Both the position numbers and the translations under genes were made by a program. From the NCBI GenBank assembly GCA_943371455.1, contig CALRUV010000001.1:1-45613 (forward strand): DNA of 45,613 nt, read 5' to 3'. Below the pieces are notes generated by a model. It was not told the origin of the DNA, searched no databases, and saw only the letters and a list, made by a program, of their open reading frames with translations. This stretch comes from Chitinophaga pinensis. Its GTDB lineage: Bacteria; Bacteroidota; Bacteroidia; Chitinophagales; Chitinophagaceae. Below are positions 4,884 through 44,365 of the stretch, piece after piece. Each line of letters opens with the position of its first letter. Positions within the stretch are counted from its first letter, which is position 1.

Positions 4884-5843
4884 TTACTGCGCGAGCAATG
4901 CATAACGTTTGTCAATTATTGCCTTGTAAGCTTCTTTGAGCTCCTTTGATAAAAAGGAATGATCGATCCATTTTATGGCTAGCGGTCGATTCTTTTCAAA
5001 ACGCCGAAGCGATCCGCTAACCTGCCTCGAACTAAGACCCAGCCCCAAACCCAATCGTTCAAAATGTTCCCTGCTCAGTTTTTTCTTTTTGCCCTCCAGG
5101 GTTAATGCTAATTCTTCAGTATCAGCAGGGTTGGCAAGTGCAACATTCAGCAGATCATAGGCAGGTGAGAGGTGCCAAATGCCCTTATCATGTATCATGG
5201 AAAAGTTTTTCAGGTGCATATCGTTGTTGCCTGTAAGAAAACTGAAATGGGTTATTTCAAAAAAATACAGTTTATCCAATAGCGTGTTATCCGAAAAAGT
5301 ATGAATGCCTTTGCCAACTTTTTCCATAGAACTTTTGTACTTATCTACTGCTTCCAATAACTGGAACATATCGAGCATATGTATCTTGCCACCCTGTGCT
5401 GTTCTATCAATCCGACGTGTTATATAACAAAGCTCTCCGGTCTTCAGGCGAATCAGGCTGGAAGGAACAACCCGAATACCAAATGCTTCTGCCATTCGCA
5501 TGGTTACATGTTCGTTTTGTGGCATTTGCGGAAAAAGGGCAGAAGGGGGTTTGAATATATAGTTACCTCCAAGTACTCCTACAACTGTGAGCCGTTTATG
5601 ATCAGCCCCTGCCATAGCATCCTTTACTAATGTGAGCGATAGTTTAGGTTGTACCCCCGGAATAGTGATACTTCTTTCAACCACTTGTTTGGCTAGCTCA
5701 GCCATATCAGCTAAAGAATAATCCAATTGTGGAGCTTCGCGCGTGCCAAAAAATGCATTACTACATTCCGGATGAAAATCAACGGCCGATTCTTCCGGTA
5801 ATGACTCATAACAATATAGACATCGTTTATTCATTTGCTGCAT
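4884..5843 (-). CDS. HipA-family kinase toxin (HipA C-terminal domain only, HipT-like)
   Basis: Gly-loop TIPGVQPK, catalytic GNNDMHLKNFS, LSPAYDL. Confidence 0.9.
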   Translation of the reverse strand: MQQMNKRCLYCYESLPEESAVDFHPECSNAFFGTREAPQLDYSLADMAELAKQVVERSITIPGVQPKLSLTLVKDAMAGADHKRLTVVGVLGGNYIFKPPSALFPQMPQNEHVTMRMAEAFGIRVVPSSLIRLKTGELCYITRRIDRTAQGGKIHMLDMFQLLEAVDKYKSSMEKVGKGIHTFSDNTLLDKLYFFEITHFSFLTGNNDMHLKNFSMIHDKGIWHLSPAYDLLNVALANPADTEELALTLEGKKKKLSREHFERLGLGLGLSSRQVSGSLRRFEKNRPLAIKWIDHSFLSKELKEAYKAIIDKRYALLAQ

Positions 5844-6159
5844 CTATTGATTGTATACTCACTGCTCCTATACAGTTCCGGCAGCAGGCCATTAATAAAC
5901 CCATACGATCGCCGGGATTCAGTTTCCAGTTTTTACTGGCAATGTCGAGTAGCCAACCTTCCGGTATCAAGCCCTCAAAAAAAGCAAAAAGGTGATTTGA
6001 AATATAGGGTTCAGCCCTTACCGGCATGGTGAGTGTAATGGGCTGACTGAACTGTAATGCCTGGTAATCTTCATGATATTGGAAAATGTATTCGCCCTCA
6101 TCGGTTTCGGTAAGTGTTCCCGCTAAGTGCTCATCATATAATACATTAGCCTGCCTCAT
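5827..6159 (-). CDS. HipA N-terminal domain protein (HipS-like antitoxin)
   Basis: AGTLTETDEGEYIFQY, FAFFEGLIPEGW and CIGAVS motifs. Overlaps the kinase gene by 17 nt. Confidence 0.85.
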   Translation of the reverse strand: MRQANVLYDEHLAGTLTETDEGEYIFQYHEDYQALQFSQPITLTMPVRAEPYISNHLFAFFEGLIPEGWLLDIASKNWKLNPGDRMGLLMACCRNCIGAVSIQSIDAANE

Positions 6160-6383
6160 GAGGTAGATTGTTCAGTGGTATTTAATTCGCGACAGCTAAC
6201 CGGAGCCAGTTCATGCCCAAACATCTTTAATACCTGGTTTACCTTTCCTAGTTGAAGTGTGTCTTTTCCCTGTTCGATCTTGCGCAGAACCGTAAGTGCC
6301 ACACCCGCGCGCTCTGCAAATTCCTGCTGACTCATCCCGGCTTGTTTCCGCCTACGTTTTACAAATTCAGCGAGGGTTTCCAT
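6156..6383 (-). CDS. XRE-family HTH regulator (HipB-like)
   Basis: SQQEFAERAGVALTVLRKIEQG HTH. ATGA overlap with the hipS-like gene. Confidence 0.9.
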   Translation of the reverse strand: METLAEFVKRRRKQAGMSQQEFAERAGVALTVLRKIEQGKDTLQLGKVNQVLKMFGHELAPVSCRELNTTEQSTS

Positions 6384-7594: not shown

Positions 7595-8521
7595 ATGAAC
7601 ATTTCAGTTGAATACAAAGACACTACCGGTACAATTTCTAATTTAACATACAATTTGACAAGGCTTGCCTTTGTAAAACATTTAGCAATTGCAGGGCAAG
7701 GTTACGCTCCTCGACCACAAAAAATTTTGCGTACTATTGGTATGTTTTTTCATTACAGTTATTACCTCCAGCGACAGGCATTTAATAATAATCACTTTTC
7801 TGCGCCACCTATAATTTTATCAGATCCGACTGAGCAGGGTCAATTTTCTACATTAGCAGGTAAAGCAATTGCAGATTTTTTATCAAAGAGAATTAATAGA
7901 AGCTTATATACTACTAATTACGAAGCTGTTGCTGCAAGGCCCTTAAGAGGGCAAAGACCAGATTTGGTTGCCTATACACAAAACTCACAATTTACCATAG
8001 AAGCAAAAGGAAGGTATCAAGCAAATCCTGGAAATATGGCTGATCATAAAACTCAGGCAGGCTCAGGAACATATCCTAGAAATTTCTCAGTGGCATGTGT
8101 TTCATATAATTTATATAGACAAGTTACTTGCAAATATCACGACCCATTTAATGACAATATACCATACGATAACAAGACTCTTCAAAAAATAACTAGGAAG
8201 TATTATTCTAAATTAGCAGAATTTCTCAATCCAAAGTATTTTGAATTTAGAGAATTTGATTTTCAAGGAGAGAGATTTTATGAAATTGAACTATCCTTTC
8301 AAAATTTCAAAAATCTTTTTCCAAGCGATTCACCATTTATACCAATTTGGCCTTTTGAAATGTTTGACATTAACAGACCTAAATTAATACTTCCAAAAAA
8401 TATTAGAGAATACGCTGAAACTGGAATAACAAATGAAATAAAACCTTTTCTTTTTGATTCTAAAGAACATGATGAAAATATTTATATCGATAATGATAGG
8501 GTTGGTTTAAGAATTAGCTGA
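7595..8521 (+). CDS. Hypothetical protein with a putative PD-(D/E)XK nuclease motif (cassette gene)
   Basis: 308-aa ORF containing RPDLVAY...TIEAKG. Confidence 0.6.
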   Translation: MNISVEYKDTTGTISNLTYNLTRLAFVKHLAIAGQGYAPRPQKILRTIGMFFHYSYYLQRQAFNNNHFSAPPIILSDPTEQGQFSTLAGKAIADFLSKRINRSLYTTNYEAVAARPLRGQRPDLVAYTQNSQFTIEAKGRYQANPGNMADHKTQAGSGTYPRNFSVACVSYNLYRQVTCKYHDPFNDNIPYDNKTLQKITRKYYSKLAEFLNPKYFEFREFDFQGERFYEIELSFQNFKNLFPSDSPFIPIWPFEMFDINRPKLILPKNIREYAETGITNEIKPFLFDSKEHDENIYIDNDRVGLRIS

Positions 8522-8701: not shown

Positions 8702-9259
8702 ATGAATCTTACTCATTGGAATTATTTTTTATCTATAGAGCAAGACGTTAAAGAATTGAGTAGATTTATTTAAATGAGCTATTCAAATTTTAATTGCTAT
8801 TCTATTCAAAATGCACGCTTAATATTAGCTTCAACTCAAGACATTGATGTTTTATTAAAACAAATTTGTGCAAAATTAGGAAACAACTCTACGAATGAGT
8901 CAGGGTATCGATTATTTATGACAAATAACTACCCGAATATACTAACTGCAAAAGTCGAAATATCGATGTACGATTTGGAATTCATGCCATTCCAAGCATG
9001 GTCTAACAATATAACTCCTGATTGGTGGACTGCTAACAATAAAATTAAACATGAAAGACACACGCATTTTACATTTGCATCACTTCAAAATTTATTGGGT
9101 ACAGTTGCGGCTCTTTTTATTACCAACTTATTTTTCTATTCTATAGTAGAAGAAGATATTGGAGTGTTTCCTGGTACATCTTTTTTTTCTGTACATACTT
9201 TAACGACAGGTTTAAGTCCAACTGATCTTGGAATGGTGCCAAATTACAAATTGCCTTAA
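8702..9259 (+). pseudogene. Conserved hypothetical gene interrupted by an in-frame TAA at 8771-8773
   Basis: ATG at 8702 reads MNLTHWNYFLSIEQDVKELSRFI* and continues in frame into the 161-aa ORF (MSYSNFNCYSIQNARL...WWTANNKIKHER). Confidence 0.7.
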
Positions 9260-9820: not shown

Positions 9821-10408
9821 TTAGATGAAGATTTCTGTTTTTTGTTTAGGTAGTTTTATTAGCTTATCGTACATAAGTGTTTCAATGTCTTTTTTTTCAA
9901 CACCATATCTACGCAAAGAAACCTCAATCTTTCTAACCTCAATATCTAACCTTCTAATTGAAGTAATTATATAGCCATCAATATTATTAAATATCATTTC
10001 TTCAATACCATAATTACCTGATAAGTATAATTTTAGAACATCTAAATATGTATAATTTATGGGCAACAGTAACGATTTATTTGAATCCCCATCTTCAATG
10101 TTACTTGTAATAATATTGAAAATTAAGCCTCTTAATTTTAATTCTTTAGGTAGTACTATAAAAATCAACTTTGCATCTTTCTCTGATTTAACTACATCCG
10201 TAAAATACCATAGTGGTATTGTAAATTTTATTTTGCCTGTTACAACTGCATCAACACTCATTTCAATACCTGATATTTTAAGTAATATGAAATTATTCAA
10301 TACAGTAACCTCTAGCGTGCTTTGAAATTTTTTTGCTGACTTTTCAACTTTATTTATTTGAATCAAAGCCGCTAATAGTTTTCTTCGTGAAACTGTAAAT
10401 TGTGTCAT
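9821..10408 (-). CDS. Hypothetical protein
   Basis: 195-aa ORF, co-oriented with the upstream operon; no motif recognised. Confidence 0.6.
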   Translation of the reverse strand: MTQFTVSRRKLLAALIQINKVEKSAKKFQSTLEVTVLNNFILLKISGIEMSVDAVVTGKIKFTIPLWYFTDVVKSEKDAKLIFIVLPKELKLRGLIFNIITSNIEDGDSNKSLLLPINYTYLDVLKLYLSGNYGIEEMIFNNIDGYIITSIRRLDIEVRKIEVSLRRYGVEKKDIETLMYDKLIKLPKQKTEIFI

Positions 10409-10641: not shown

Positions 10642-11112
10642 CTACAATAAATAATTAACTTCTTTTTTCGAAAACTCATTAACTAGTTTTTCCAAATTAC
10701 CACTTGGGCTGCTATAGCCTATAGTTATTTTTTCGGCCAATTCGATCATCATTCTGTTCCTCACTATTCCGGTTTGTTCTGTTACCCTTTTAATCGATTC
10801 ATCAAAAGGAGTAATAATTAACAAGCGGCCTTTATTTAGTGGTTCATGAAATTCAGGCTCAATTTTTTGCTTTAGCCCTCTTGCCAGTGCAACAATTATA
10901 GGCTGGTTCCCTTTTAAAAGGTAATGTAATACGTCCTTTTCTAACTTGCTATGAAAGCCACTAATTACACAAACGCCCGCTTCTCTTTGTTCAATTGCCC
11001 AATCGTAACATTTCAGCACAACATTTGCCGGTACCTTCCTACTGCACAAAAAGGATGTTTTTGAAAGCATTAGCACTTCTTTATTACCTAAAATCGCTTT
11101 TATGACCTTCAT
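10642..11112 (-). CDS. Short DprA/SMF-like (SLOG superfamily) protein
   Basis: FLCSRK, VISGFHS..EKD, IIVALARGL and RNRMMIELA match a DprA-type Rossmann core. Confidence 0.7.
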   Translation of the reverse strand: MKVIKAILGNKEVLMLSKTSFLCSRKVPANVVLKCYDWAIEQREAGVCVISGFHSKLEKDVLHYLLKGNQPIIVALARGLKQKIEPEFHEPLNKGRLLIITPFDESIKRVTEQTGIVRNRMMIELAEKITIGYSSPSGNLEKLVNEFSKKEVNYLL

Positions 11113-11163: not shown

Positions 11164-11259
11164 AATATGGACAGTTTTGTCTAGTTAATGTCCAGGTTTT
11201 GTGGTTTTCGGGACTAATAAATCACCAATATGGACAGTTTTGTCCAGTTTGCTGTCCAG
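11164..11259. promoter_or_regulatory. Duplicated palindrome TGGACA-GTTT-TGTCYA with extra TGTCCAG half-sites (candidate operator)
   Basis: AATATGGACAGTTTTGTC occurs at 11164 and 11227 (63 bp apart); each is followed by a further TGTCCAG. Confidence 0.55.
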
Positions 11260-11260
11260 T

Positions 11261-12775
11261 TTAAACTTTTGTGACAAAATGAAATCGTTTTGATGGCCCG
11301 CCTCCACTGGTACGTATAAGACCAAGTTCAACAAATTTTGATAGATGCCTTTGAGCTTTTTTGTCATTAAAATAGAAATGATGAGCATAATCCGGCTTCG
11401 AAACAGTTTGCTTGTCCCTAATATAAAACAAACCTATTTTTTCTTCTTCATTCAGCTGGGACAGCACATCTTTCGCTAAGATATTACCCATGAAAGATTT
11501 TGAGCGTGGGAATGTAATTGTAAGATATGGGTCTTCCCATGTAACTGAGGGAAGTGGCAACCGATAAGTATCTGGTAAAGATTTCATCTCGTCCATACCC
11601 ATACCTCTTTCTTCAACAAAATCCATTGCGTTAAAAACTGCCATAAGTTTTGGATTTCGACTAAGTGATGGCGCTTTAAATTGTTGAAAATCTTCAAATC
11701 TTATTGGCTTGACTGGCAAGCCGGGGCTTTTAATTACAATATTATCGTCATCAATATTCAAATAAATCTTAGCTCCTTCTATATCATAATCCCTGTGCAC
11801 AATAGCATTAATAATTGCTTCTCTCAAAACTCTTATCGGATAATCATAAGTTACTTCACGAGCAAAGTTTTCTCTTGATATAGTAGATGAAAGGACTTTC
11901 TTCAACCAACTTTCTACCTGCTCGGGTAACAGAACTAAGGCATCATCAAAGTCTTGAATTTCTGGTTCAGCCTTGCCATAACGTGCCTGTACTTTAAGTA
12001 CAGCTTGAGGATAACGAACTCTAGGCTCTTTACCAAAAAGTAAAATACCTAATCCTGTTGGTCGTAATTCATTGTCTGAATCTAATTCTATTAGTTGTCG
12101 TTGTAATAAATGAGCCAAAAATTCTTTACTATTTGGCGCAAGGTTTAAACCAGCACGATTGATATAAAAATTTAGAGCATTATCAGACAATTCCGAAAGA
12201 CTTGATGTAGAAATCTTTTTTTCTAGTGGCGATAATTCAACTTCTTTCGGTTTCTTTATTTCCTGTGCCCTTACTTTTGCCTGCTCAAGGAACTCTTTGT
12301 TTTCATCAAATATTATTTCTTGAAATTCGTGATCAAACATTTCAACGTCAATACCCGCATCCATCAAGTATTTGATACCTTTTCGATCTACTGTTGGGTC
12401 AGGATCTTCAATACCAATCCAAATTTTAGAAATACGTGCATTCACAATCCTTTCTGCACAGCCCAGTTTAGGGTGCTTTCTTGAACCTGGTGCACATGGT
12501 TCTAATGTGGCAAACAAATAATTACCAGTAACGTTTTGAGCCCTGAACTTTCTATCCAGTAAAGTATACTCAGCATGATCTCCCTCTCTTTGTTCACCTC
12601 TATGTGCGGCGCCTAAAACTTCCCCTCTCGGAGAAACTAAAACAGCTCCAACTTTAGGACTGGCTTTGCCATCTCCTCTTTTTTCTGCTACCGATTTTTT
12701 CATTTCTTCAATAGCAATTTGCATAAAAACTTTAGGTTCAAATACCTGATTTCCTTTTACCATATTTTTAAACAA
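11261..12775 (-). CDS. Fusion protein: RibD-like Zn deaminase + HATPase_c_4 (RecG-C-like/GHKL-like) domain + wHTH
   Basis: PKVGAVLV, HAE, TLEPC-x11-C and EDPDP (deaminase). LREAIINAIVHRDY, SPG, SRNPKL and EERGMG (HATPase_c_4). AQRHLSKFVELGLI..SGGG (wHTH). True start may be the ATG at 12763. Confidence 0.8.
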   Translation of the reverse strand: MFKNMVKGNQVFEPKVFMQIAIEEMKKSVAEKRGDGKASPKVGAVLVSPRGEVLGAAHRGEQREGDHAEYTLLDRKFRAQNVTGNYLFATLEPCAPGSRKHPKLGCAERIVNARISKIWIGIEDPDPTVDRKGIKYLMDAGIDVEMFDHEFQEIIFDENKEFLEQAKVRAQEIKKPKEVELSPLEKKISTSSLSELSDNALNFYINRAGLNLAPNSKEFLAHLLQRQLIELDSDNELRPTGLGILLFGKEPRVRYPQAVLKVQARYGKAEPEIQDFDDALVLLPEQVESWLKKVLSSTISRENFAREVTYDYPIRVLREAIINAIVHRDYDIEGAKIYLNIDDDNIVIKSPGLPVKPIRFEDFQQFKAPSLSRNPKLMAVFNAMDFVEERGMGMDEMKSLPDTYRLPLPSVTWEDPYLTITFPRSKSFMGNILAKDVLSQLNEEEKIGLFYIRDKQTVSKPDYAHHFYFNDKKAQRHLSKFVELGLIRTSGGGPSKRFHFVTKV

Positions 12776-15700
12776 TTAATCTTCAACATCTATATTACTC
12801 ATTCGGTATTTAATATCATAATTTATAATAAAATCTATTTCATCATTTGTAAGACCATATTCTGCAGCTAATACTTTGTCTATTTCGTCCATAGTTGCTT
12901 TTGATAAATATTTATTATATGTAATTGTTTCATTACTTCCTCGAGTTTTACTATTAATTACATATGTTGTTGCATTTTTCATTAATTCTTTTTCGAGCTT
13001 GTTAGAAAGCTCAATAAGCTTCTTCTCTATGATTTTATCTTCAGGATAATTGAATCGAAAGGCAAATAACATGTAGTCCTTAAAATTAAACTGATCGAAA
13101 TTTATAGTATAATACCACCAAAATAAATTTGAATTTAATACAGCAGAAATAACCTTAGAATTATATTTCTTATTAAATGTTGCAGACTTGTTACTTAATG
13201 AATTTGTTTCAAATGCCGTATTTAAAATAGTAACCCAATAACCACCACCTGCAGTTCTATAATATATTTTGTTGTCTTTTGTAAAACCATTTTGTAAATA
13301 ATTAGCGATTTCTTTATGTTTAAGGAATTTACTCAAAATTGAACTTTCTAAAGATGAGCCTATTTTAAGTAAATGCTTTTGGTTTGATTAATTTGCATTT
13401 GTATAAATAAGTGTAGGAAATAAATTAGGCCTTGTATCTGTTTTCCATCTATAAACTCTAGTAGAATAACTAGCTTTCGTTCTCGCACCTTTAGGAATAA
13501 TAAAAATCGAAAGTCGTTGTAACACACCTTCAAATAAAGCAGCAGGTCTTTGGTGAAAGTTTGAAACAAAAGTTAAAGGGTTCTTTTTAAAATATGTTTG
13601 AAGAGTTTCCATACTAGCATTTGAAAAAGCGCTTATAGGAATAATCATTCCCATAAATCCATTACTATGTAGAATATTATTAGATCGCTCTATCACGTAT
13701 CCATAAAGATTTCCGCATTTCTCAGTACTATAATTTTTTAATGTGTATAAATTTCGAATTTTAGAATATTCAACATATGGCGGGTTTCCAATTATTACGT
13801 CGAATCCTTTTCTATCATGAATAATTTCATAAAATTCAGCAAACCAATGGAAAGGCTGATGTGAATCTAACCAAGTTTCAATCTCTAACCCTTCTGATTG
13901 TTTATGTAAAAGCTTGTTTAATTCAGTATTTAATTCTTTTAGACGATTATTCAATGTTTCTTTCGCAATTTTAAATTCTTTGTAATCGTCACCATAAGAA
14001 AGTTGAATTTCTTTATATCGTTTAAAAGCTGTGGCTACTATATCACACTTTTCCTCAATAATTGGTTTAGCTTTAGCGCCATCAAGAGTGTAGGTAAGTC
14101 CTTTTATTAATTCTTCATCTGTGGCAAAACCAATTAAAGTGTTTCCAGCACGTATATTAAAATCTATATCAGGCAATGGTTCTACACCAAGATTAGTTTT
14201 TCGATAATCTACCTCAACTGTTGCCACCAATTTTAAAAATAAACGAAGCTTAGCAATTTCAACCGCTTCTTTCATTATATCAACCCCATAAAGATTATTT
14301 AGAATAATACTCTTATAAATAAAATACTCTGTGTTAGGATGTTGTTCACTTTGTATATTTTCAAGTACTTCCCTAAAAAAATTGTATTTATTATTAAACT
14401 TTTTAAGTTGCTGTTCGTTGGCCCTGTCTTCGTCTTCGGTAAACCCTCTCATTCTAGTAATACAAGCAAAATATAAAGGCTCTAAAATCTTCATTGCTGC
14501 AAACAAGAAAGCTCCTGAACCGCATGTAGGATCAATAATAGTAACCTTACTTAGTGTTTTGAAAAAGGCTTTTAAAAAATCTGGATCATTTGTATTTGAA
14601 ATAACATCTTGTGCAAATTCAGTTATATTTAGATTGTATGTAATAAAGTCCTTTATATTATTTATTCCTCCGTTCTTTATTTTTTTGGCTACATCCTCAT
14701 ATCGATTTCTCCTTTCAATTACTTCACGCCATATTTCTGTGGGCAACGATAGTTGAGCTAAAGCAGACTTGTTCCAGTCTTCTCTCTTTGCAACATCTTT
14801 GATACCCACAGTAATATTCTCAGGTATATGCTTATCTATACCAAACTTCACCGCTGGATAAATGTATGTGTCATCACTTTGTAAAAAATTTGCCCAAATT
14901 TCACCGTCTGGCGCAAAGGCTTTAGAATATTGTTTTGCCGTTTCATCAAAAAGCCATGGTATGATACAGTTTTTGCTAATATAATCCGTGATATCTTCTT
15001 TTGTATAGTAGGCGCCCATTTGTGCCCTGTCATTAATATATTTTTCGAAGATGTACCCAATTACATCCGGATTAATTTCTCTGCCTGTTGACTCTTGGCG
15101 TGTATCTAAATGCCATTCATACTCATCAAAAAAGTTAAATATTTTCTCAAACGCTTTATCGTTAATATTAATTTTTTGATACGTTTTTTCTAATTCGTGT
15201 TCATCAAACAGCCCTCCGTTTAAATATGGAATAATTCCAATTTCATCTTGAATTTTTTTTCTTCTTTCTGGTTCGTTTAGTCCTTCATGAAAAAGAACCA
15301 AAAGAAAATTTCTATAAAAAGAATAGAATTTATCTTTCCCTTTCTTCTCATTACATTCCTTTAATTTGTCCCTCAGGTAGTTTTTGTTTTTATTCAAGAA
15401 ACCTTTCTTCTGGATAAAATAACAGAACATAAGCCTATTAAGCATCAAGGAAACATACCATTGTTTTGCTTTGTTCTCCAATTCCTCCTCGCCCTTTTTC
15501 CTTTTATTATTCCACTCATCAATATGATCATCAATACCTTCAATGAATGAATAGAATGAGAGATGTTCTTTTGTAAAACGTTCATAAAACTGTTTTGTAA
15601 TACGTTCTGCATTTTGATGAAAATTGTCAGTTACTCTTGTAGTTACATCAACTATTGTTATTTTTTCTTCTTCATCTATTTCAAAAAATAAACCAGATGC

Positions 15701-16090
15701 TCTTTGAAATAATAACTCAGGATCCTGGCTTAGAGCATATCTTGTTTCTGTAACTTTAGCAGGCTTCCCGGTTTGCCTCATCACTAATTGCCAAACCTGC
15801 TCTTTCATTTTATCGTCTGTAAATATGATAAGATGCTCCTGAAAGAGTTTTGTAACTTTGGTTTCTATTTTTTTTCTAATATTATAATCAGGAATTAACC
15901 CATGTCTATCCGGTTCGCACACTAAGATTTTAAAGCCGCTTTTAACAGCAACACTTTTTAGGATAAATGTTTCATCATCAACAACAATTGGTTGGTTGGT
16001 TTTGTCATTGTTCCATCCCATATCGTTGAACAAATCTCTAAATTTGAACTCGCGGATATATTGTACGAATTGCTTTTTGTTTATTCCCAT
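12776..16090 (-). pseudogene. Large N6-adenine DNA methyltransferase (Eco57I/type IIG-like), about 1104 codons, split by one in-frame TAA at 13388-13390
   Basis: IIDPTCGSGAF, LYGVDI, GNPPY and PYLNGGLF motifs. After the TAA the frame continues SNQKHLLKIGSSLESSI into the 186-aa ORF ending FIINYDIKYRM. Confidence 0.85.
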
Positions 16091-16092
16091 AA

Positions 16093-19000
16093 TCAGTTAG
16101 TGATGTTTGATAAACCTAATGAGCAAATAATTTGAGGCTCTTTGTTAGGTTGTTCGTCTTCATTTATAATTGCTAGTTTATCTTCTTCTCTAAGTGAGAT
16201 AACTAGAGAAGCAAGTTGATCATCGCTTATTCCAGATTTTAACTGTCTGTTCAATGTTTCTCTAGCATATTCTTTCAGTGGATATTTATAAATATCATCA
16301 ATTGCTTTTTTAAGTTGATCATTTACAAACAAAGTGTTTTCATATTCTTTACAGTATCTGTCTAGTCGAATATATACACGATACTTAACTCCTGTTTTTT
16401 TGCCTAAAGACCCCCCTATATTTTTTTCTTCTTCTTTAATAAAGTCTATACCTTTTTTAACAAGTTCATGATGCTTTTCAAGTTTTCTATTGGCTTTAGC
16501 ACCTGGTAAACAATGTGCGGCTCTTAGAATGGTGTACTGCGATTGTGTTATGATAGACCCTTTCATATTAACCCATGTCAGCACATCATTTTCATCTGAT
16601 GTACGCGTATAGACAATTACGCCTTCCTTCTCTGAATCTTCTTCATTCCGTTTGGTGGCATAGATAACATTTGGTAGGTCGGGAATAATTTTATTCAAAT
16701 CTGGATTCGCATCTATTGCGTTTTTCCAAATTTGATATGCGTATGACGCTAGATCAACTTCCGAGTCGTCATCCTCGCCATCTAGGATTCCTGATTTTTC
16801 ATTGTATAGGTCGGCAAGGTTTACAGGATCGCCATCGAAAAATGTTTCATCACTACCTACGACGTTTGCATTTTCTTCGATTCGTTGTGTTAATCTTGTT
16901 CTTAAATTAATAACAGACTCAATACCATCTTCAGGCAAAAACGAATAGCATAAGATTTTCTCGGCTTTTTGTCCTATTCTATCTACACGTCCAGCTCTTT
17001 GTATCAACCGAATAATAGCCCATGGGAGGTCATAGTTTATTACTATGTGTGAATCTTGAAGGTTTTGACCTTCGCTTAGAACATCAGTTGTTATTAAAAT
17101 TCGTAATTCCTGATTTAATTGATTTATCTGTGGCTTTTGATTACTAATTGGACTAAATCTATGTGCTAACCCTGTTGGATTCTCGTTTTCACCAGTTACA
17201 CTTTCAATTTTTTCAATTCCTCTTTTCTTAAGTTGATCTGTCAAATAATATGCGGTATCTGCAAATTGTGTGAAAACCAATACTTTTTCTTTACTGTGTG
17301 TATCTGTAAGTAATTTGTATAATGCATTTAGTTGTCTGTCTTCATCTGGATTCCAAACTTTCCCGATTTTTAATATTTTAATAATCTCATTACAATCAGA
17401 AACAAGTTTGGTCCTTAGGGCTAAAGCAAAAAACTCGCTGCGAATCCATTCAAATCGTTTTTTGTTATTGTCTGTTGAATATAATTCATATAGCGCTTTC
17501 GCTTTTTCAAGATATTTCGATTCTTCAAGAATTAGTTTCATTTGATTCTCAGGTAAACCATCATTGTCAGTATCATTGTCCTCCAAATATTCGTCCAAAT
17601 TTTGAGAAATATTTTTACCTATTGGAACAGGAAGTTGATTTTGTAAAGCATATACAAAAACATAGTTTCTTAAAACATGACGGCTTAGAGATAAAAGAAA
17701 TGAATATCCGCTGCTTTCAAGCCTTTTGAACAAGTTTGTTCTGCAGAACCCCATTAAACGTTTCCCTGCTCGGCTCAAATTTGCCATTAATACCTCTTCT
17801 GCTTTTGTTGCTCTAATTACAGGGTGATCATTCAGAAACTTTTGCAAGCCATATCTGGCCAGTTCAAGGCCGTTTATTATATCAACTATTCTTGGAGAGT
17901 ATAGTTTTGCATATTGGTCTTTCGGGTCTTTTGGATCAAATGCGTATTCAACTCTTTTGGGTATTCTTTCTGGAAAGTAAGAACGTGTTCCGTCAGCAAA
18001 TGTTAAATATTTACGAGCATTTGTATTATCAGACTCTGCATAATTATTTTTTATAAAACTTCTTGTTCTCCTAACTAGATATAGTCTCATCAATTCTCTC
18101 CAATCATCTGCCAACGTGCTTTTCTCAAAAGCTTTTATGCTTCGAATAAAGGTTTCTGTATGTTGAGAGTTGAACTGAATTGCTCCCCCAATACTTTCAA
18201 TATACCTTTCAGGGCTTATTCCTAAATCCTTATCATCAGAAATAAAGAGACGAAGTTGATTTGATAAATCAAGATAGGTCTTATTATATGGTGTTGCCGA
18301 AAGAAGTATTACTTTACTTTCGTTCTCTTCCAGATAAGATTTAATAGCCCGGTACCTGCTACCTTGATCGTTTCTTAAATTATGGCTTTCGTCAATTATA
18401 ACTAGTCGATATCGACGAAGGTTAGGTAAAATTGTTTGTACCTGACTTTGTGATATAACTTTCGTCGATGTTAGTTTGTAGTCATGTGCATATCCCTCCC
18501 ACATTTCTACAAGATTTTTTGGACAAATTATTAAAGTTTCTAAAAAAAAATCGTCTTGAAACATTTTTGCCAAAGCTGTTGCTGTTATTGTTTTACCCAA
18601 CCCCACAACATCGCCAATTAAAACGCCATCTCTTTTATGTAAATGGTGTGCTGCAACCTGAACAGCTCTTTGTTGAAACAGCAAAAGCTCTTTCTCGAAT
18701 ATTTTAGGAAGCTTGAATTCATTTATACCAGCCCTTGCCTCACTAGATAAATGGTATGCTATTTTTATATAAATATGAAAAGGTGATATTAACTTTTCTG
18801 CTGCCCATGAATTGTCAATAATTTCTATTAATTCTTCGGTTATGTCTAAACACCACCGATCTTTCCAGCGATCGTCAAACCAAATAGCCAATTTTTTTGA
18901 CGCATCCTGATCCATTACATCAATATTAAGCTCACCTTGTTTTGCAAGTCCAGCTAGTGTTAAGTTGCTACTACCCAGAAACCCAACAACAGGAACCCTT

Positions 19001-19470
19001 TTGTCATCACTATAAGCTAAATACAATTTGGCATGAAGAGTATAACGCAAATGAAGTTTTACTGTTACTTTTTTATATTTCATCTGCTGACTTAGCTTTC
19101 TTAATGCTTTTTCATCTGCTTCGGTAGGAACTCCAATAGTAAGTTGATCTTTAAACTCTTGAGCAAGCTTCTTTTTTAATTTTACTGCTTCTGCCTGATC
19201 AAATACGTATTCATCGTCTTTATAGAAATAATCTCTTAAGGTATCAATTGGTAATTTTTGCATGCCAACAAGAAGCCTGCAAGTTCTATGAATTGCAAAA
19301 TCACCTTCTTCAACCATGTCTCCAGACATTTTCTCAACCTTATCTGCAACTTCTTTCCACCCTCTAAGATTAAAATACCCTACACAAAAATCCGATCTTT
19401 TAGAAAGGTCTAAGGTTTCGTTTAATCCTAAAGTGAGGTGATTTTCAATATTATCGTAAATCTTAGGCAT
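16093..19470 (-). CDS. PLD-nuclease / SNF2-type SF2 helicase fusion (restriction-like partner of the methyltransferase)
   Basis: HAKLY...GSSNLT...GELN (PLD/HKD). DVVGLGKT, IIDESHN, LLSATP, VFTQFADT, SEGQNLQ and QRAGRVDRIGQ (SNF2-like). Confidence 0.9.
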   Translation of the reverse strand: MPKIYDNIENHLTLGLNETLDLSKRSDFCVGYFNLRGWKEVADKVEKMSGDMVEEGDFAIHRTCRLLVGMQKLPIDTLRDYFYKDDEYVFDQAEAVKLKKKLAQEFKDQLTIGVPTEADEKALRKLSQQMKYKKVTVKLHLRYTLHAKLYLAYSDDKRVPVVGFLGSSNLTLAGLAKQGELNIDVMDQDASKKLAIWFDDRWKDRWCLDITEELIEIIDNSWAAEKLISPFHIYIKIAYHLSSEARAGINEFKLPKIFEKELLLFQQRAVQVAAHHLHKRDGVLIGDVVGLGKTITATALAKMFQDDFFLETLIICPKNLVEMWEGYAHDYKLTSTKVISQSQVQTILPNLRRYRLVIIDESHNLRNDQGSRYRAIKSYLEENESKVILLSATPYNKTYLDLSNQLRLFISDDKDLGISPERYIESIGGAIQFNSQHTETFIRSIKAFEKSTLADDWRELMRLYLVRRTRSFIKNNYAESDNTNARKYLTFADGTRSYFPERIPKRVEYAFDPKDPKDQYAKLYSPRIVDIINGLELARYGLQKFLNDHPVIRATKAEEVLMANLSRAGKRLMGFCRTNLFKRLESSGYSFLLSLSRHVLRNYVFVYALQNQLPVPIGKNISQNLDEYLEDNDTDNDGLPENQMKLILEESKYLEKAKALYELYSTDNNKKRFEWIRSEFFALALRTKLVSDCNEIIKILKIGKVWNPDEDRQLNALYKLLTDTHSKEKVLVFTQFADTAYYLTDQLKKRGIEKIESVTGENENPTGLAHRFSPISNQKPQINQLNQELRILITTDVLSEGQNLQDSHIVINYDLPWAIIRLIQRAGRVDRIGQKAEKILCYSFLPEDGIESVINLRTRLTQRIEENANVVGSDETFFDGDPVNLADLYNEKSGILDGEDDDSEVDLASYAYQIWKNAIDANPDLNKIIPDLPNVIYATKRNEEDSEKEGVIVYTRTSDENDVLTWVNMKGSIITQSQYTILRAAHCLPGAKANRKLEKHHELVKKGIDFIKEEEKNIGGSLGKKTGVKYRVYIRLDRYCKEYENTLFVNDQLKKAIDDIYKYPLKEYARETLNRQLKSGISDDQLASLVISLREEDKLAIINEDEQPNKEPQIICSLGLSNITN

Positions 19471-20736: not shown

Positions 20737-20940
20737 AGCCTCAAGTTTTAGATTCAAAGCCTGTTGTTTTGAGCTTTTGGCTTAAAATGGCGGGCTTTTC
20801 AGTTTAGGGTTTTGGGTTTTGGGTTTAGAGTTTGGGGTTTTGAGTTTAGAATTGAGGTGGAGAGGGAGAAGTATTGGGGTTTGAGGGTAAAGTTTAGGGT
20901 TTGGGGTTTAAAGTTTTGAGTTGTTGGGGTTAAAGAGGGG
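20731..20940 (+). repeat. Degenerate 7-nt tandem array (~30 units, G/T-rich, telomere-like TTTAGGG/TTTTGGG)
   Basis: GCCTAAA GCCTCAA GTTTTAG ATTCAAA ... AGTTTAG GGTTTTG GGTTTTG GGTTTAG AGTTTGG GGTTTTG ... GTTTAGG GTTTGGG GTTTAAA GTTTTGA. Starts at the stop codon. Confidence 0.8.
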
Positions 20941-21025: not shown

Positions 21026-21907
21026 TTGGATAATTCCCCTTTCATACCGGATTATATCTACAAAAGATCAGACATACATGATATGTATGGAGGTAATAGA
21101 CAAGGCGGAATTGCACCATCGGCTAAAGTGCCCTATATATTTATATTCTCTGGTAAAACAGGATCTCAGTACGGTTATAAGGATGGATGGGATAATCCTA
21201 ATGTATTCAGTTACACTGGCGAAGGTCAAGTAGGTGATATGCGTTTTATAAAGGGAAACCTAGCATTGAGAGATCATATCAATAATGGCAAACGCGTTTT
21301 TTTATTTGAATACGAACGATCAGGATATGTAAAGTACATTTCAGAATTAGAATTTTTCGATATTGGCTATTTTGATACACCAGACATAAACAAGAATGAA
21401 AGAGTGGGTATCAAATTCTTTTTCAAGAAGACGGGTGCATATATTCCAGTTACACCAGAGCAGTTTCAAATAAATCAGATCAATGAAGATAATCCTGGTT
21501 ATGCTGAAATTATTTTACCAAATTCAACAGAGCGTTCAGGATTAGTTACTTCAAGGGTTGGTCAAGGTGCTTACCGAAAAAGAATTATTCATCGATGGGA
21601 ATACCAATGTGCCGTAACCGGGTTCAATAAATTAGATATCTTAATAGCCTCACATATAGTGCCCTGGTCTAAGGCAACAGATGCAGAAAGATTAGATGTT
21701 CATAATGGAATTTTATTATCTCCAACTTATGATGCCTTATTTGATAAGCATCTAATTAGTTTTGATCACCAAGGAAAAATTCTTCTCTCTGATTCTATTG
21801 CACCTGACGCTTATAATAAAATTGGCGTAACAGGAAAAGAGAAAATTCAAAAACTAAGTAGTTATAATTTTGAGTATTTGGATTTACATAGAGAATTGCT
21901 GATATGA
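21026..21907 (+). CDS. SRA-like + HNH endonuclease (modification-dependent, type IV-like)
   Basis: YGGNRQGGI...YGYKDGW...YTGEGQVGDM...GN (ScoMcrA-type SRA). RVGQGAYR..CAVTG..LIASHIVPW..NGILLSPTYDALFD (HNH_2). Confidence 0.85.
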   Translation: MDNSPFIPDYIYKRSDIHDMYGGNRQGGIAPSAKVPYIFIFSGKTGSQYGYKDGWDNPNVFSYTGEGQVGDMRFIKGNLALRDHINNGKRVFLFEYERSGYVKYISELEFFDIGYFDTPDINKNERVGIKFFFKKTGAYIPVTPEQFQINQINEDNPGYAEIILPNSTERSGLVTSRVGQGAYRKRIIHRWEYQCAVTGFNKLDILIASHIVPWSKATDAERLDVHNGILLSPTYDALFDKHLISFDHQGKILLSDSIAPDAYNKIGVTGKEKIQKLSSYNFEYLDLHRELLI

Positions 21908-22220
21908 TAGTTTAATAAGTTAATATTCTAAATCTTTTTTCTCCGCAGAGTCCTGGTTCTGAGGGTTATCTGAGGGGAACTCACATCTTTCTAAGGAACA
22001 CTTTTCGGAGAATTAAAAAACCCATCCGTCTTCACTACCCCGCAAATCTTTTTACTATTTGCCAAATGTTACGGTGCCGTCTATTTCCCGTTTATTTATA
22101 TTAGAGAAGATACACATGTATTTTACCTTAATTTATTTGCTATTAGGTATACTTAATAATTCATCTTTCAGGTGATTTCACGGTATTTTGATATTAACTT
22201 GATTTTTTCACTAAAAATAT

Positions 22221-22228
22221 TAGTTTTG
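22221..22228 (+). promoter_or_regulatory. Bacteroidota -7 promoter box TAGTTTTG (possible near-leaderless transcript)
   Basis: Matches TAnnTTTG, lies 4 nt before the ATG, with TTG about 19 nt upstream. Confidence 0.4.
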
Positions 22229-22232
22229 TAGT

Positions 22233-22847
22233 ATGTTCAGAACCCAAACGAACAAAAAAATCGGGAACCTGCTTAACTATCTAGCCACCCGAATTCCCAA
22301 CCTTAGTCTAACAAAAACGCTCAAGTTATTATACTTGATTGATGAAACAGCATATAGCCGTACAGGCGTTTCTATAACCTGGTTTGATTACAAGGTTTGG
22401 AAAAACGGTCCTGTAGCGGAAGAACTATATAACGAGTTGAAATACGACCAATCTATTATTCAAAACGGTGAAAAAATTAATCTCGAACCGTATATTGAAA
22501 CGCAAAAAAAAGAAAAAGGAGAACAAACCTTTGTAGATATTTTACCAAAGGGGAGATTTGATTTATCTTCTTTTTCTTCTTTCGAAACAGAATTGATTGA
22601 TAATATCATTGACCGCTTTGGTACTTATACCGCCGGCCAGCTAATTGAGCTTTTACATGAGGAAGATACATTATGGCATAAATCTGTAAAAAACAATAAC
22701 CTCTCTCTTAACTTTAAAGTATACGGCAGCAAAAGCAATCATACCATCGATTTTTCTGAGTTGATCAAAGAAGACCCTATTAAGCAAATGGCCGCTCAGT
22801 CTGCATTTGAAAGTATGCAGTTGCAGGAAGACCTCGAAAACCTGTAA
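22233..22847 (+). CDS. Panacea (DUF4065/SocA-like) antitoxin
   Basis: TKTLKLLYLIDE...G.SIT...Y..WKNGPV..ELY and TAGQLIELLH....W. Confidence 0.85.
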   Translation: MFRTQTNKKIGNLLNYLATRIPNLSLTKTLKLLYLIDETAYSRTGVSITWFDYKVWKNGPVAEELYNELKYDQSIIQNGEKINLEPYIETQKKEKGEQTFVDILPKGRFDLSSFSSFETELIDNIIDRFGTYTAGQLIELLHEEDTLWHKSVKNNNLSLNFKVYGSKSNHTIDFSELIKEDPIKQMAAQSAFESMQLQEDLENL

Positions 22848-22852
22848 GGCCA

Positions 22853-23311
22853 ATGGAATGGAAATCAGGATTAATTCTGCGCATTAAAGACTATAAATTT
22901 GAAGATGATCAGTCTGTTCGTGATAAATATGCTATCGTATTATATGCCGATAAAGACCAAGCCTACATTATTCACTCGCTAACAACCAGTCAAAACAATA
23001 AGGGTTTGCCAGCTATGCAGTATGGCTGTTCTGTACATCATTTTATTCCTTATTATTTTATTCCTCAAGGACAAGTTATTGGAGACAATAATTTTAGTTT
23101 TGAAAGAGATACATTCATTTTTTTTAGAAACAACGTAAGAAAAGAATCCACTATTAAATTTGAAAGTGCGGCAAAAAAAATTTTTGGACTTGCTATATTA
23201 GGCGTGTTATCCAACGATGAACTAAAGCGTATTATTAAATGTGCGATGAAGTCAAAGTTCATTCCTGCAGAAGTTGAGAAAGAGCTAAGTGTTTTCAAGG
23301 CTAGCTTGTAA
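22853..23311 (+). CDS. Putative cognate toxin (PemK/MazF-like fold suspected)
   Basis: Starts 5 nt after the Panacea gene. G.IL...Y.FED....RDKYAIVL....SLTTSQ resembles a PemK-type N-terminus. Confidence 0.5.
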   Translation: MEWKSGLILRIKDYKFEDDQSVRDKYAIVLYADKDQAYIIHSLTTSQNNKGLPAMQYGCSVHHFIPYYFIPQGQVIGDNNFSFERDTFIFFRNNVRKESTIKFESAAKKIFGLAILGVLSNDELKRIIKCAMKSKFIPAEVEKELSVFKASL

Positions 23312-26025: not shown

Positions 26026-26700
26026 TTAAAAATCCACCTCTAACAATTGTCCATTTTCCTTTAACCATTGCTTAGCTTTTAAATAATTAGGTACTTGTAT
26101 TGAAAGTATGTTCCAAAAACGAGGTGTATGATTATTTTCCATTAAATGGACTAATTCATGAGCAACCAAATACTCTAAAACATACATTGGTGCTTTGATT
26201 ATTCGCCAATTGAAAATTATATTGTTTGCTGGAGTGCAAGAACCCCAACGATATTTCATTTCAGAGGTTTTAAATTCATTGTAAACAACCCCTAAGTTCT
26301 TTGCAAAATTGGAAGCCAAAGGTTCAATTAGCTTTAATGCCTGATTCAAATACCACTTTTTGAATAACGCGTTTGCATTGGGTTGGTTAGCTCTTGAAAT
26401 TCTAAATCTTTGCTCAAACTCAATTCCTTCAATTGCTTCATCAACCACCAATAACTGATAGTTTTTACCTAAGTACAACAAAGTCTCACCTGAAATAAAT
26501 TCTTTGGTTTGCGTATCAACTGGGTACTTCTGTGTATGATTAATTTTTTCTTTTAACCATTGTTTCTTTGATTGCAATACTTCTTCAATTTTTTGTGCAG
26601 ATGTATTCTCTGGGGCACGGACAATAATTTTCCTGTCACGTTCAACAGTGATGTTAAGCGTTTTGCGTTTACTATATTTTATTTCATATTCAAACTGCAT
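26026..26700 (-). CDS. YgjP/DUF45 (M48-like) Zn metallohydrolase associated with type I R-M
   Basis: MKYRWGSC, FNWRI, YLVAHELVHL..NH...FW. Overlaps the hsdR stop. Confidence 0.9.
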   Translation of the reverse strand: MQFEYEIKYSKRKTLNITVERDRKIIVRAPENTSAQKIEEVLQSKKQWLKEKINHTQKYPVDTQTKEFISGETLLYLGKNYQLLVVDEAIEGIEFEQRFRISRANQPNANALFKKWYLNQALKLIEPLASNFAKNLGVVYNEFKTSEMKYRWGSCTPANNIIFNWRIIKAPMYVLEYLVAHELVHLMENNHTPRFWNILSIQVPNYLKAKQWLKENGQLLEVDF

Positions 26701-29700
26701 TAGTCCGTAACGATTTTAAAATGATTAGTTTTTGCTAACTCCATTATTCTTGAAATCAACTCGTTTCTTTTAATTACAATGTTTGGCAATTTGTTGAAGT
26801 CGGGTGATAATAACATCTTCTGCAACTCTGCTTTTAGTTTTAGCTGTGCCGGTGTGCTATCCCAAAAGCCTGTCAATTTTATTTCGGTGGAAACTAAATT
26901 GAAAATATGTTGGGTTAGGTTTACATTTTGAGCAATTTCTTCATCGGTTAATTTTCTATTGTCAAATAGGTATTCCTTAAATGAATTGAAGAAAGGCATA
27001 TGCTTTTTGCGGTCTAAACCGTAGGTTTCTTCCTTTTCCCTGTTCTTAATTTTCTCCCTTAGTTTTTCTAACTCTTCATAAATGGCTTTCCAGTTGCCTT
27101 TGAAGTTTTCTAAAATCTCCTCTAAGGTTTTGGCAAATGAGGCAAACAATGCAGGATCTTCATCCAAATTAATATCAATGTAATGGCGAATGGCGTGTTC
27201 AACTTCTGCTGCTTTTGTTTTTTCTCTTTTCTTGGTATTTACTCCCTTTTGGAAATCTTCCGCAATAATTGATATTGGTGCAACTGTTTGTTCTAAGCCT
27301 CTACTCTTTAAAAATTCATCTGCAATACTTCTTAATTTTGGTGGAATACCTTTCATACTGAAACGACCATCCCTAAAGTGTTTGAGTGCTAATTCGTTGA
27401 TTTCAGTAAATGTTTTCCAGTCATTAAAAAAGTCTAATGCTTCCTTTCGTGGCAAAACATCGTTGAAACAAGTGGTTAGTTTTTTATAAAGTTTTATATA
27501 CTCAAATCGTATATCCTCATCATAGAACACATCAAAGAAAGCATCGCTATCTGACAAGTCTTCCAAACCTTGTTGCTTTAAATATTCCCAAATGTCTTTA
27601 TGTGCTTTTATAAGTTCGTTTAGTTCCGCTTCATCGTTTGAAATGCAACCTAAAATTTCCTGCAATTCTTTTTCTGTATAAGTATCTAAGGCTCTTTTTA
27701 AATGATGCCCTACACCTACATAATCAACAATGAAACCTTTGTTTTTTCCTTCTGGACCAATACGGTTTACCCTTGCTATGGTTTGTAATAAATTGTGTTC
27801 TATAATAACCCTGTCTAAATACATTACTTGTTCAATAGGTGCATCAAAACCAGTAAGCAACATATTGTTTACTATAATGATACCTACATTGCCATTGAGG
27901 GCTGTATCTTCTTCATCTGTTTTGTCAAATGGAAGTTTGAAACGCTTAATACTCTTTTTGTGATAATCGCCATTTGTAAAAGCCTTGATATGCAAAGCAT
28001 CGTTATGACTGCCCGAAATAACTACTGCAACCTCCAATTGCTTTAACATTTCAATATTAACTTTCATTGGATTATTGATATCCATTTCAGCAATTTTTTG
28101 TTTTAATGCATCCTCAATGGCGACTTTATACCTTACTGCTGCTTCACGACTATTGGCAACTATTTGAGCTTTAAAACCACCTGTAAAGATTTGCTCTACA
28201 TAGTGTGTTACCATATTTTTTGCCTTATCTCTTATGGTTTCAATTGCTTCTAAATAAGCATCCCGACTGCCAAAGCCTAAAATCTGTAAGCGTTCCGTAA
28301 GTTGAAAATCTTTAAAAACATCTTCAAACTTTTTATCCATTCCTTTCTTATCAGGAATTTCAGCATTGTGTGTAAAGCCTTCATATACTATTTCTAAAGT
28401 AACACCATCATCAATTGCCTGACGCATTGTGTATTTATCAATGTAGTCTTTGTATTTCTTTTCTGTTTTGCCTGTTGGTGTACCTGTGAAGCCTATTGAA
28501 GTTGCATTGGGTAATGCCTTATCTAAATTGGCTGCAAGCAAAGAGTATTGAGATCGATGGGCTTCATCGGTCATTACTAAAATGTTGGTATTGGGGTTTA
28601 GTTCAGGGAAAATTTGCAAGCCTTCCAAATCTCCATTTTCTTGAAACTTATGGATCATTGCCATTACCATATCTGAATTATCATTGCTTAATAATTCTTT
28701 TAAACTCTTACCATCTGGTGTGGCTTTCGGATTAATGAAATTTGCATTTTTTATAGTGAACCCTATGCTGTGACCTGTTTCTGATAGTTGTTCCTCAAGT
28801 TGTGTGCGGTCGGTAATAAATACAATTTTCCAAGACTGCAAAGCCGACTTTAATCGCATTTCACGAACCATAAACATCATTGTTAATGACTTGCCCGAAC
28901 CTTGTGTATGCCAAATAATACCTCCACGTTCTAAAGAATTATTACCTTCAATTAATCGCTTGGTGGCTATCTTAACTGCTCTAAATTGTTGGTATCTGCC
29001 AACTACTTTTATTTTTTTGCCTTTATCGTCTATTTGAAAAACTGTGAATACCTGAATAATGTCTAAAAGGTTTCTTAAATCTAACATACCAGCAACCATT
29101 CGTTGCTGATCGTTGGGACTACTTGCACCGTGTTCTAAATCGTTTAATGATTTTGGATAGGGATCTGTCCAACGATAAAAGTGCTTTTCTATTCCAGTTG
29201 TTATTGTGCCAAACTTAGCTTCGGTTCGGCAGGTCGTAATAATAAACTGATTGTAAAAGAATAGTTCTTTATTTCCTTCGCCTGTATCGCCTCTTTGTTC
29301 ACTATACCGCATTAACTGGTCAATGGCTTCGGCAATTGGTTCTTTTACCTTTGATGATTTGGCTTCTACTACAACAATTGGTAAACCGTTTACAAACAAT
29401 ACTAAGTCGGGAATAATATGGTGGTCTGTACCTGTTACTTTAACCTTGAATTGCGATATGGCTGTAAAAACATTGTTCTCTAAGTTTTCAAAATCAATGA
29501 AACGAACTGTTGGGCTGTATTCTCCTGTTTGCTCATTGGAGGAAACTGTTGTATTTTCTAACAAGTAGGTTAATACCTGCTGATTGTTTTCTATTAAGCT
29601 ATTTTTTTGAAAGGTGGTTATTTTCCGTACCACTTCATCTAATTGTCCTTCGGTTAAAAATGGATTAATGGTAATGAGTGCATTGCGCAGTTTGGGAAGC

Positions 29701-29900: not shown

Positions 29901-29909
29901 ATTAACACT

Positions 29910-40593: not shown

Positions 40594-40610
40594 AGTAATA
40601 AGAATTAAAT

Positions 40611-41609: not shown

Positions 41610-41657
41610 AAATTTTAATTTTTAATTAAATAGACTTAATAGTTTGTTTTATTTTTT

Positions 41658-41762
41658 TTACAATGCTTTGGGATTGATGCAAACAGAACCATTCCAGCCG
41701 TTATCGTGCCAGGGAACACGAACAGAAAGGTGCTTTAATATGTATCGTGGATTATGCTTCAT
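41658..41762 (-). pseudogene. 34-aa truncated duplicate of the RecD2-like gene start (repeat copy 2)
   Basis: MKHNPRYILKHLSVRVPWHDNGWNGSVCINPKAL*. Its ATG overlaps the end of the 453-aa gene. Confidence 0.85.
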
Positions 41763-43113: not shown

Positions 43114-43116
43114 AGT

Positions 43117-44364: not shown

Positions 44365-44365
44365 A

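Follow-up and report, generated by a model that had tools for sequence, protein, structure and literature searches.

One gene in the window (the whole stretch of DNA analyzed, 45,613 nucleotides) encodes a single chain made up of a Zn deaminase, a GHKL ATPase, and a winged helix; repeats directly behind this gene vary between homologous loci together with the recognition helix of its wHTH. We propose that the protein may be a one-gene accessory defense effector, switched by ATP, docked on its own repeats, and deaminating a free ribonucleotide when triggered; we put the probability of this reading at about 0.45. It builds on what was observed directly: the architecture, the invariant catalytic residues, the adjacency to restriction–modification (R-M) genes, the repeats, and the co-variation of the repeats with the helix.

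Architecture and distribution of the fusion protein

The open reading frame (ORF) of the fusion encodes 504 aa from a TTG codon at 12775, and the database's own call (P0002) has 500 aa, the length obtained from the ATG codon at 12763, which is the likelier start; residues are numbered here from the TTG codon. The gene and its parts are as follows.

11261..12775 (-): deaminase–GHKL–wHTH fusion gene; ORF, likely start ATG at 12763, 500 aa
12281..12730 (-): RibD-related Zn deaminase domain, about aa 16–165 (Pfam, alignment, Foldseek)
12569-12577 (-): HAE of the deaminase
12458-12499 (-): PC-x11-C of the deaminase
11489..12238 (-): helical subdomain and PF13749 GHKL ATPase, about aa 180–429 (Pfam, Foldseek, motifs)
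11804-11824 (-): E319/N323 box of the GHKL ATPase
11273..11467 (-): C-terminal winged helix, about aa 437–501 (AlphaFold model)
11342-11362 (-): predicted recognition helix of the wHTH

Pfam analysis of the fusion protein matched PF00383 to aa 16–121 (E 4.2e-12, 46.3 bits, cut-off 25) and PF13749 to aa 334–422 (E 7.4e-14, 52 bits, cut-off 26), together with a weak Inv-AAD match; neither the RibD reductase family nor AlbA_2 (PF04326) was matched at E ≤ 0.01. The NCBIfam RibD model TIGR00326 was covered only at profile positions 11–119 of 343, with 65 bits vs a cut-off of 156. The HAE motif corresponds to aa 67–69, the cysteines of PC-x11-C are C94 and C106, and the GHKL motifs are present. No rib genes were found by Pfam among the 31 proteins scanned in the window. 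The initial annotation, made from the sequence letters, had described a RibD-type deaminase with HAE...PC-x11-C, lacking the reductase and rib genes nearby and fused to a HATPase_c_4 domain and a wHTH, and this description was confirmed.

The AlphaFold model (mean pLDDT 82.7, pTM 0.54, from a 28-row alignment) placed the deaminase, the helical subdomain, the GHKL sandwich, and the C-terminal winged helix in this order. The wHTH was modeled as three helices and a two-strand wing; it has no Pfam match in the fusion itself, and HTH Pfam matches are present in the homologues P0149 and P0165. A Foldseek search with the model ranked DIP2311 (3lmm, E 1.3e-13) first, followed by RibG/RibD (E about 2e-9), dCMP deaminases, and TadA (about 1e-5). 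PADLOC-DB 2.0 gave no whole-protein match to a catalogued system, only partial matches of Argonaute-associated models over residues 142–385. The 'RecG helicase' label used by some sources derives from the Pfam name, and no helicase domain was found in the fusion.

Both Pfam domains occur in 117 of the 119 best non-self homologues (49–82% identity), and of 600 pattern matches in a metagenome scan, 539 were confirmed and 80 kept. The family is widespread but patchy: it was present in 7 of 400 genomes from the phylum, in 5 of 400 from the family, and in 0 of 4 from the genus, and a related-locus search of genome contigs with the fusion protein alone as query returned one locus. Searches of 72,556 plasmids, 50,697 phages, and the 15 viral loci recovered gave no match over the full length of the fusion. 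Some homologues depart from the common layout. Those of about 620 aa (P0012, P0019, P0020, P0024, P0055, and others; L001, L009) carry an insert of about 125 aa between the helical subdomain and GHKL, possibly an added sensor, for which neither a Pfam match nor a usable ESM Atlas match was obtained. P0152, P0165, P0167, P0171, and P0186 carry 135–190 extra N-terminal residues without a Pfam match, and two of them begin with paired CxxC motifs.

The deaminase is set apart from RibD

H67, E69, C94, and C106 were conserved in all 108 representatives tabulated (74 GHKL-fused and 34 otherwise fused); the full set had 151 representatives, of which 24 were left out because they were only partly covered and a further 19 because they were short or unclear. 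On the ATPase side, E319, N323, S350, G352, N374, and G393 were invariant in 92 homologues with identities as low as 30%. Both catalytic centers are intact, which supports the initial annotation on this point. The G2-box Arg was retained in only 54 of these 92 homologues, which counts against our preferred reading.

The fusion has the RibD-type zinc site, HxE and PCxnC with an insert between the cysteines (Pfam, alignment, Foldseek). Four pocket residues that are 96–100% conserved in 25 RibDs, namely the Asn of PNP, the His before HAE, and a His and a Thr of the inter-cysteine loop, are replaced in the fusion clade, for example His by Arg in 98–100%. D124 and R99 align with Asp101 and Lys79 of BsRibG (22-residue spacing, 2b3z alignment), which are described in the available part of PMC8256712 as binding the ribose 2'/3'-OH and the phosphate, respectively. 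R59, which lies 8 residues before the zinc His and replaces a RibD His, has the same offset as AoRib2 Thr53, for which the same source gives a contact to base O4 (PMC8256712). Position 126, which corresponds to Asn103 of RibG, a ribose-binding residue, is occupied by Asp in 58% and by Asn in 27% of the GHKL fusions.

As the ribose-binding Asp and a phosphate-binding basic residue are kept and other RibD pocket residues are changed, we infer that the substrate is a free, 5'-phosphorylated ribonucleotide. Arg can read guanine. Our lead guess, held with considerable doubt, would be a guanine nucleotide (GTP/GMP to XTP/XMP), because the RibD substrate is ring-opened GTP and the base-reading His has become Arg; cytidine nucleotides would be the next guess. 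The clade may have a substrate new to phage defense.

In common with RibD/RibG, the fusion has the deaminase fold, the zinc site with its insert, and the Asp101 and Lys79 equivalents; unlike them, it has no reductase, a changed pocket, a separate branch in the tree, and no rib neighbors. In a quick tree of 133 deaminase domains, the 25 RibDs, all from this phylum, formed one side of a branch with an SH-aLRT support of 100. All 74 GHKL-fused domains fell inside one 79-row branch (support 84), which allows, without proving, a single fusion event. A complete RibD is encoded elsewhere in the genome (347 aa, G000:C90, 275 bits for TIGR00326), and both genomes in which a fusion and a RibD were seen (G000, G002) have a RibD over the cut-off, that of G002 being a partial match. 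No riboflavin family was found among 231 first and second neighbor ORFs of the homologous loci. Taken together, these results support a non-riboflavin role for the deaminase, as the initial annotation had assumed. In the available part of Iyer et al. 2011 (PMC3239186), RibD-like deaminases are given only as riboflavin enzymes.

A Schlafen-type scaffold with an exchanged enzyme

The spacing of E319/N323 equals that of E314/N318 in RzAgo (the E-x3-N box). According to the available sections of bioRxiv 10.64898/2026.05.29.728809, these residues keep the gamma-phosphate and Mg in place in RzAgo, the one characterized relative, in which this Pfam domain both binds and hydrolyzes ATP and drives tetramerization even when the Schlafen domain is absent; section 9 treats it as an ATP-driven oligomerization switch and not as a phage sensor. 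By analogy, ATP binding, ATP hydrolysis, and ATP-driven oligomerization may be expected of the fusion. The initial annotation had called this domain a sensor; the GHKL domain is there, and the sensing part of that label was too loose.

Schlafen–GHKL is the commonest prokaryotic Schlafen architecture, with 60,692 of 103,533 proteins (bioRxiv 10.64898/2026.05.29.728809, section 5). Among the other PF13749 proteins of the phylum (29 sampled of the 44 matches listed), AlbA_2 was found in 21, DUF4062 in 3, and nothing was detected in 5. The same deaminase clade occurs on other scaffolds, including an NB-ARC–TPR protein (P0254), a cyclase and a PASTA protein (P0251, P0261), and many unannotated partners. 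Since the deaminase sits on other scaffolds and the scaffold bears other N-terminal domains, both halves behave as interchangeable modules. These data support the view that the fusion is a 'Schlatpase' scaffold whose Schlafen nuclease has been replaced by a RibD-related deaminase, the effector swap that the initial annotation had put forward, and the family thereby shows this scaffold carrying an unrelated enzyme. Members of the deaminase clade without GHKL were also seen on two viral contigs (L155, L156).

The likeness to Schlatpases, or pSlfn-HisKinase-HTH proteins (DIP2311, PDB 3lmm; the SLFN-pAgo RzAgo), extends to PF13749 with the E-x3-N box, the C-terminal HTH, and a tendency toward R-M or BREX loci, as far as the available parts of bioRxiv 10.64898/2026.05.29.728809, PMC13056530, and PMC12839542 describe them. 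In contrast to these proteins, the fusion has a deaminase in place of the N-terminal SLFN_AlbA_2 nuclease, has no Argonaute sensor, and is followed past its stop codon by direct–direct–inverted repeat units phased at 62–63 bp. In BREX loci, Schlafen–kinase–wHTH genes are regarded as backup effectors, and they are closely linked to these loci in at least 1017 taxa (PMC12839542, available part). PMC13056530 reports an E. coli test of seven Schlafen fusions of four architectures, HisKinase included, in which protection was confined to the DUF262 and Ig-like forms. Stand-alone Schlafen versions of the scaffold thus gave no defense in this one small test, which is the main evidence against a defense role.

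Several anti-phage systems use deamination. dCTP deaminase/AvcD and RADAR RdrB are anti-phage nucleotide deaminases. Kongming KomA is another (PMC13434031, available part). The fusion would resemble all of these in using nucleotide deamination as a defense step, a works-like comparison only, as no PADLOC model of theirs matches it and its scaffold differs. No kinase-like P-loop, RdrA, KomB, or KomC partners were seen among the neighbors of the fusion.

The fusion gene lies beside varied restriction–modification genes

In the window, the neighbors of the fusion are the following.

12776..16090 (-): type IIG/Eco57I-like methyltransferase gene, interrupted (Pfam, PADLOC)
16093..19470 (-): PLD-like nuclease and SNF2 helicase (Pfam, PADLOC, NCBIfam)
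10642..11112 (-): small DprA/PsyrA-like gene directly after the repeats (Pfam match below the cut-off)

The gaps of 2 and 12 nt make co-transcription of the fusion with its upstream neighbors plausible. The methyltransferase gene is split by an in-frame TAA at 13388-13390, which cuts off about 200 C-terminal residues, and its homologue in L083 is uninterrupted. Run X1 also has this TAA, an agreement that is not independent, as this DNA may come from X1. The TAA and the repeat array past the stop codon are additions to the initial annotation.

We examined 88 homologous loci, 86 of them with a neighbor. An R-M gene was directly adjacent to the fusion in 29 of the 86, vs 13 of 2354 own-genome control ORFs; the R-M reference set was drawn from these loci, so the comparison favors the loci over the control, and the loci are related. 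R-M genes lay within two genes in 34 loci, within 5 kb in 42, and on both sides in 14 of the 88; all 36 adjacent ones were co-oriented with the fusion, and 16 of 33 clusters (70% identity) included an R-M-adjacent member. With these caveats, the fusion sits beside defense genes above background, in a defense-type neighborhood. In 57 of the 86 loci there was no adjacent R-M gene, and some of these fusions lie among housekeeping genes (L008, L022), which counts against a defense role.

The neighboring R-M genes belong to types I, II, III, IIG, and Mrr, with no fixed partner, and other neighbors include SIR2, HerA, Abi_C, ABC-3C, RadC, and housekeeping genes. RadC/UPF0758 genes or fragments lie at most two genes from the fusion in L015, L017, L021, L034, L067, and L073. 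The order seen in the window (PLD–SNF2, IIG-like methyltransferase, fusion, DprA-like) recurred in full in L083 and in part in L088 among the 88 loci. A fixed system with the PLD–SNF2/IIG pair was therefore rejected, and the proposal that the fusion is a backup to this co-transcribed R-M-like pair was not upheld, given the varying neighbors and the interrupted methyltransferase.

Phased repeats follow the stop codon

Past the stop codon of most homologues we found a repeat unit composed of two direct 9-bp half-sites with a 12-nt period and one inverted copy. Two units are present in the window.

11228..11261 (-): repeat unit 1, beginning inside the stop codon; direct half-sites 11253-11261 and 11241-11249, inverted half-site 11228-11236
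11165..11197 (-): repeat unit 2, 63 bp further; direct half-sites 11189-11197 and 11178-11186, inverted half-site 11165-11173

The count covered the 77 loci in which the gene end was complete and the flank was 120 nt or longer. With minimum scores of 23, 21, and 19 of 27, a unit occurred downstream in 58, 61, and 63 of the 77 loci and upstream in 3, 3, and 6 of 75, and shuffled sequences gave 0–0.7; in about a fifth of the loci, no repeat was detected. The unit-to-unit spacing was 62–63 bp in 33 of 43 intervals. The units of the window have a 4-nt central gap, as do those of L043, L093, and L094; a strict geometry (12-nt period, 3-nt gap) misses the copies in the window, and a flexible scan detects them.

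Repeats also accompany other genes with this scaffold. In 7 of 29 other PF13749 genes (L107, L108, L110, L120, L121, L123, L124), 12-nt tandem repeats lie in the linker before the wHTH, and in five more (L096, L098, L112, L113, L118) direct repeats were seen by eye just past the stop codon, which suggests that the pairing of wHTH and repeat is general to the scaffold. Repeats of 12 nt near wHTH genes are reportedly bound by that wHTH, so the pairing in the fusion is not to be called unprecedented.

Half-sites co-vary with the recognition helix

The half-site sequence differs between loci and tracks the recognition helix of the wHTH. The top two of 360 residue–base pairs joined one helix position (R476 here) to bases 7 and 8: Arg occurred with A7 in 35 of 36 cases and Asn with C7 in 18 of 22, and Tyr/Phe occurred with A8 in 5 of 5 and all other residues with C8 in 58 of 58. 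Among 37 sites of one sub-type, the residue-476 rule had no exception, and the residue adjoining 476 independently tracked bases 4–5. Of 18 loci outside that set, sites were obtained from 8, none from 9, and one locus was left unparsed; by our reading, all 8 loci with sites follow the base-7 rule and 6 of the 8 follow the base-8 rule. Close relatives changed wHTH and repeat together (L046/L061, L042/L050).

On the deaminase–GHKL tree, 5–6 of 7 and 5 of 5 independent pairs agreed and none opposed (median p 0.06); on a wHTH-only tree made without the helix columns, 2–3 of 4 and 4 of 4 agreed (p 0.125–0.25, not significant). The phylogeny-aware tests all pointed in the same direction and none reached p<0.05, which counts against our preferred reading. 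Helix position -1 did not co-vary with the first three bases on the tree, and only one independent pair was available for position +1. The co-variation gives good support to the predicted docking of the wHTH on the repeats that follow its gene.

No paper was found on the fusion or its repeats, and the supplements of PMC12839542 and PMC3239186 may list the architecture. The available parts of PMC13552941 and PMC13434031 do not mention the fusion. New here is the direct–direct–inverted 9-bp repeat behind the fusion gene that co-varies with the wHTH helix. The cognate DNA sites and the residue–base code make the wHTH target and the gating of the effector directly testable.

Proposed function and alternatives

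In the effector reading, the wHTH probably binds the repeats directly behind its own gene, and the GHKL ATPase would switch the oligomeric state through ATP-driven dimer or tetramer formation, by analogy to RzAgo. The protein may bind two units 62–63 bp apart; this distance is about six helical turns and puts the units on one DNA face, which suits a looped oligomer. Docking would restrain the enzyme or its expression until infection disturbs it, and the released or triggered deaminase would then destroy a free ribonucleotide. The patchy spread of the family, the occurrence of the deaminase clade on an NB-ARC–TPR protein, and the backup role described for Schlafen–kinase–wHTH genes also speak for this reading. 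A fully specified version, in which the ATP-bound oligomer loops two units and stays off until a phage that destroys or remodels host DNA releases it to turn GTP into XTP, is a long shot. If true, it would mean a new deaminase activity, a DNA site that doubles as an antitoxin and a sensor of integrity, and a mode of activation that tens of thousands of Schlatpases may share, with a readable protein–DNA code.

The best-surviving alternative, itself unlikely, is that the fusion is mainly a cassette regulator, whose wHTH at the repeats would repress or road-block the next gene while the ATPase and deaminase report the nucleotide state. In 28 of 35 loci, the gene that comes after the stop codon and the repeats is on the same strand, and in 13 of these 28 it is an R-M gene; the next gene is often hsdR, hsdM, or mod, and here it is the DprA-like gene. 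A promoter-like match at 11183-11155 also overlaps repeat unit 2. However, such matches were near chance (49 vs 39.2 ± 6.0), and convergent genes follow the repeats just as often (5 of 7), so the role of the repeats is not confined to that of an operator for the next gene. The catalytic Glu present in all 108 representatives further argues for an enzyme and not for a retired sensor.

The same defense role with polymer editing (of tRNA, mRNA, or exposed ssDNA) by the deaminase, comparable to the tRNA cleavage by the replaced Schlafen, is quite unlikely. Conserved basic residues are abundant in the pocket (R59, R63, R99, K103, R109, R114), and the weak Inv-AAD match points the same way. RNA-editing TadA has an Asp equivalent to D124, so D124 does not exclude an RNA substrate. 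The scaffold presents Schlafen to tRNA in RzAgo (bioRxiv 10.64898/2026.05.29.728809, available sections). Nevertheless, the nearest solved folds are RibG/RibD and then dCMP deaminase, with TadA ranked lower, and the Asp or Asn at position 126 would fit a free 3'-OH better.

We rate just as low the possibility of an addiction or island-guard toxin, harmless when docked on its own repeats, toxic once the island or the repeat DNA disappears or is degraded, and lacking a trigger specific to phages. The two repeat units of the window were found nowhere else in its 3.54-Mb genome, the two pairs of close relatives differ in wHTH and repeat together, and the fusion gene is intact beside a broken methyltransferase gene; yet the full-length fusion was not matched in the plasmids, phages, and viral loci searched, and about a fifth of the loci showed no repeat. 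A regulated second riboflavin-pathway deaminase was rejected as highly improbable, although no named family is nearer than RibD in either sequence or fold, given the missing reductase, the separate RibD over the cut-off in both genomes, the separate branch, the changed pocket, and the absence of riboflavin families among the 231 neighboring ORFs.

Other features of the window

No tRNA genes were found in the window. Three ORFs in an AT-rich island (7595-8521, 8774-9259, 9821-10408) had no Pfam, NCBIfam, or PADLOC match, and a low-complexity G/T-rich tract at 20740-20930 follows a GC-richer 164-aa ORF without a family match. The regions 4884-6383 (-) and 21026-23311 (+) hold a HipA-type three-gene module, an HNH nuclease, and a Panacea-domain antitoxin followed by an unannotated 152-aa ORF. 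A second defense cluster at 26026-45598 (-) contains type I R-M subunits and YgjP; interleaved with these are a 2323-aa sacsin-like/helicase protein that matches PADLOC TmtA (E 3.6e-173), a RecD-like PDC-S68 protein, and two unannotated ORFs.
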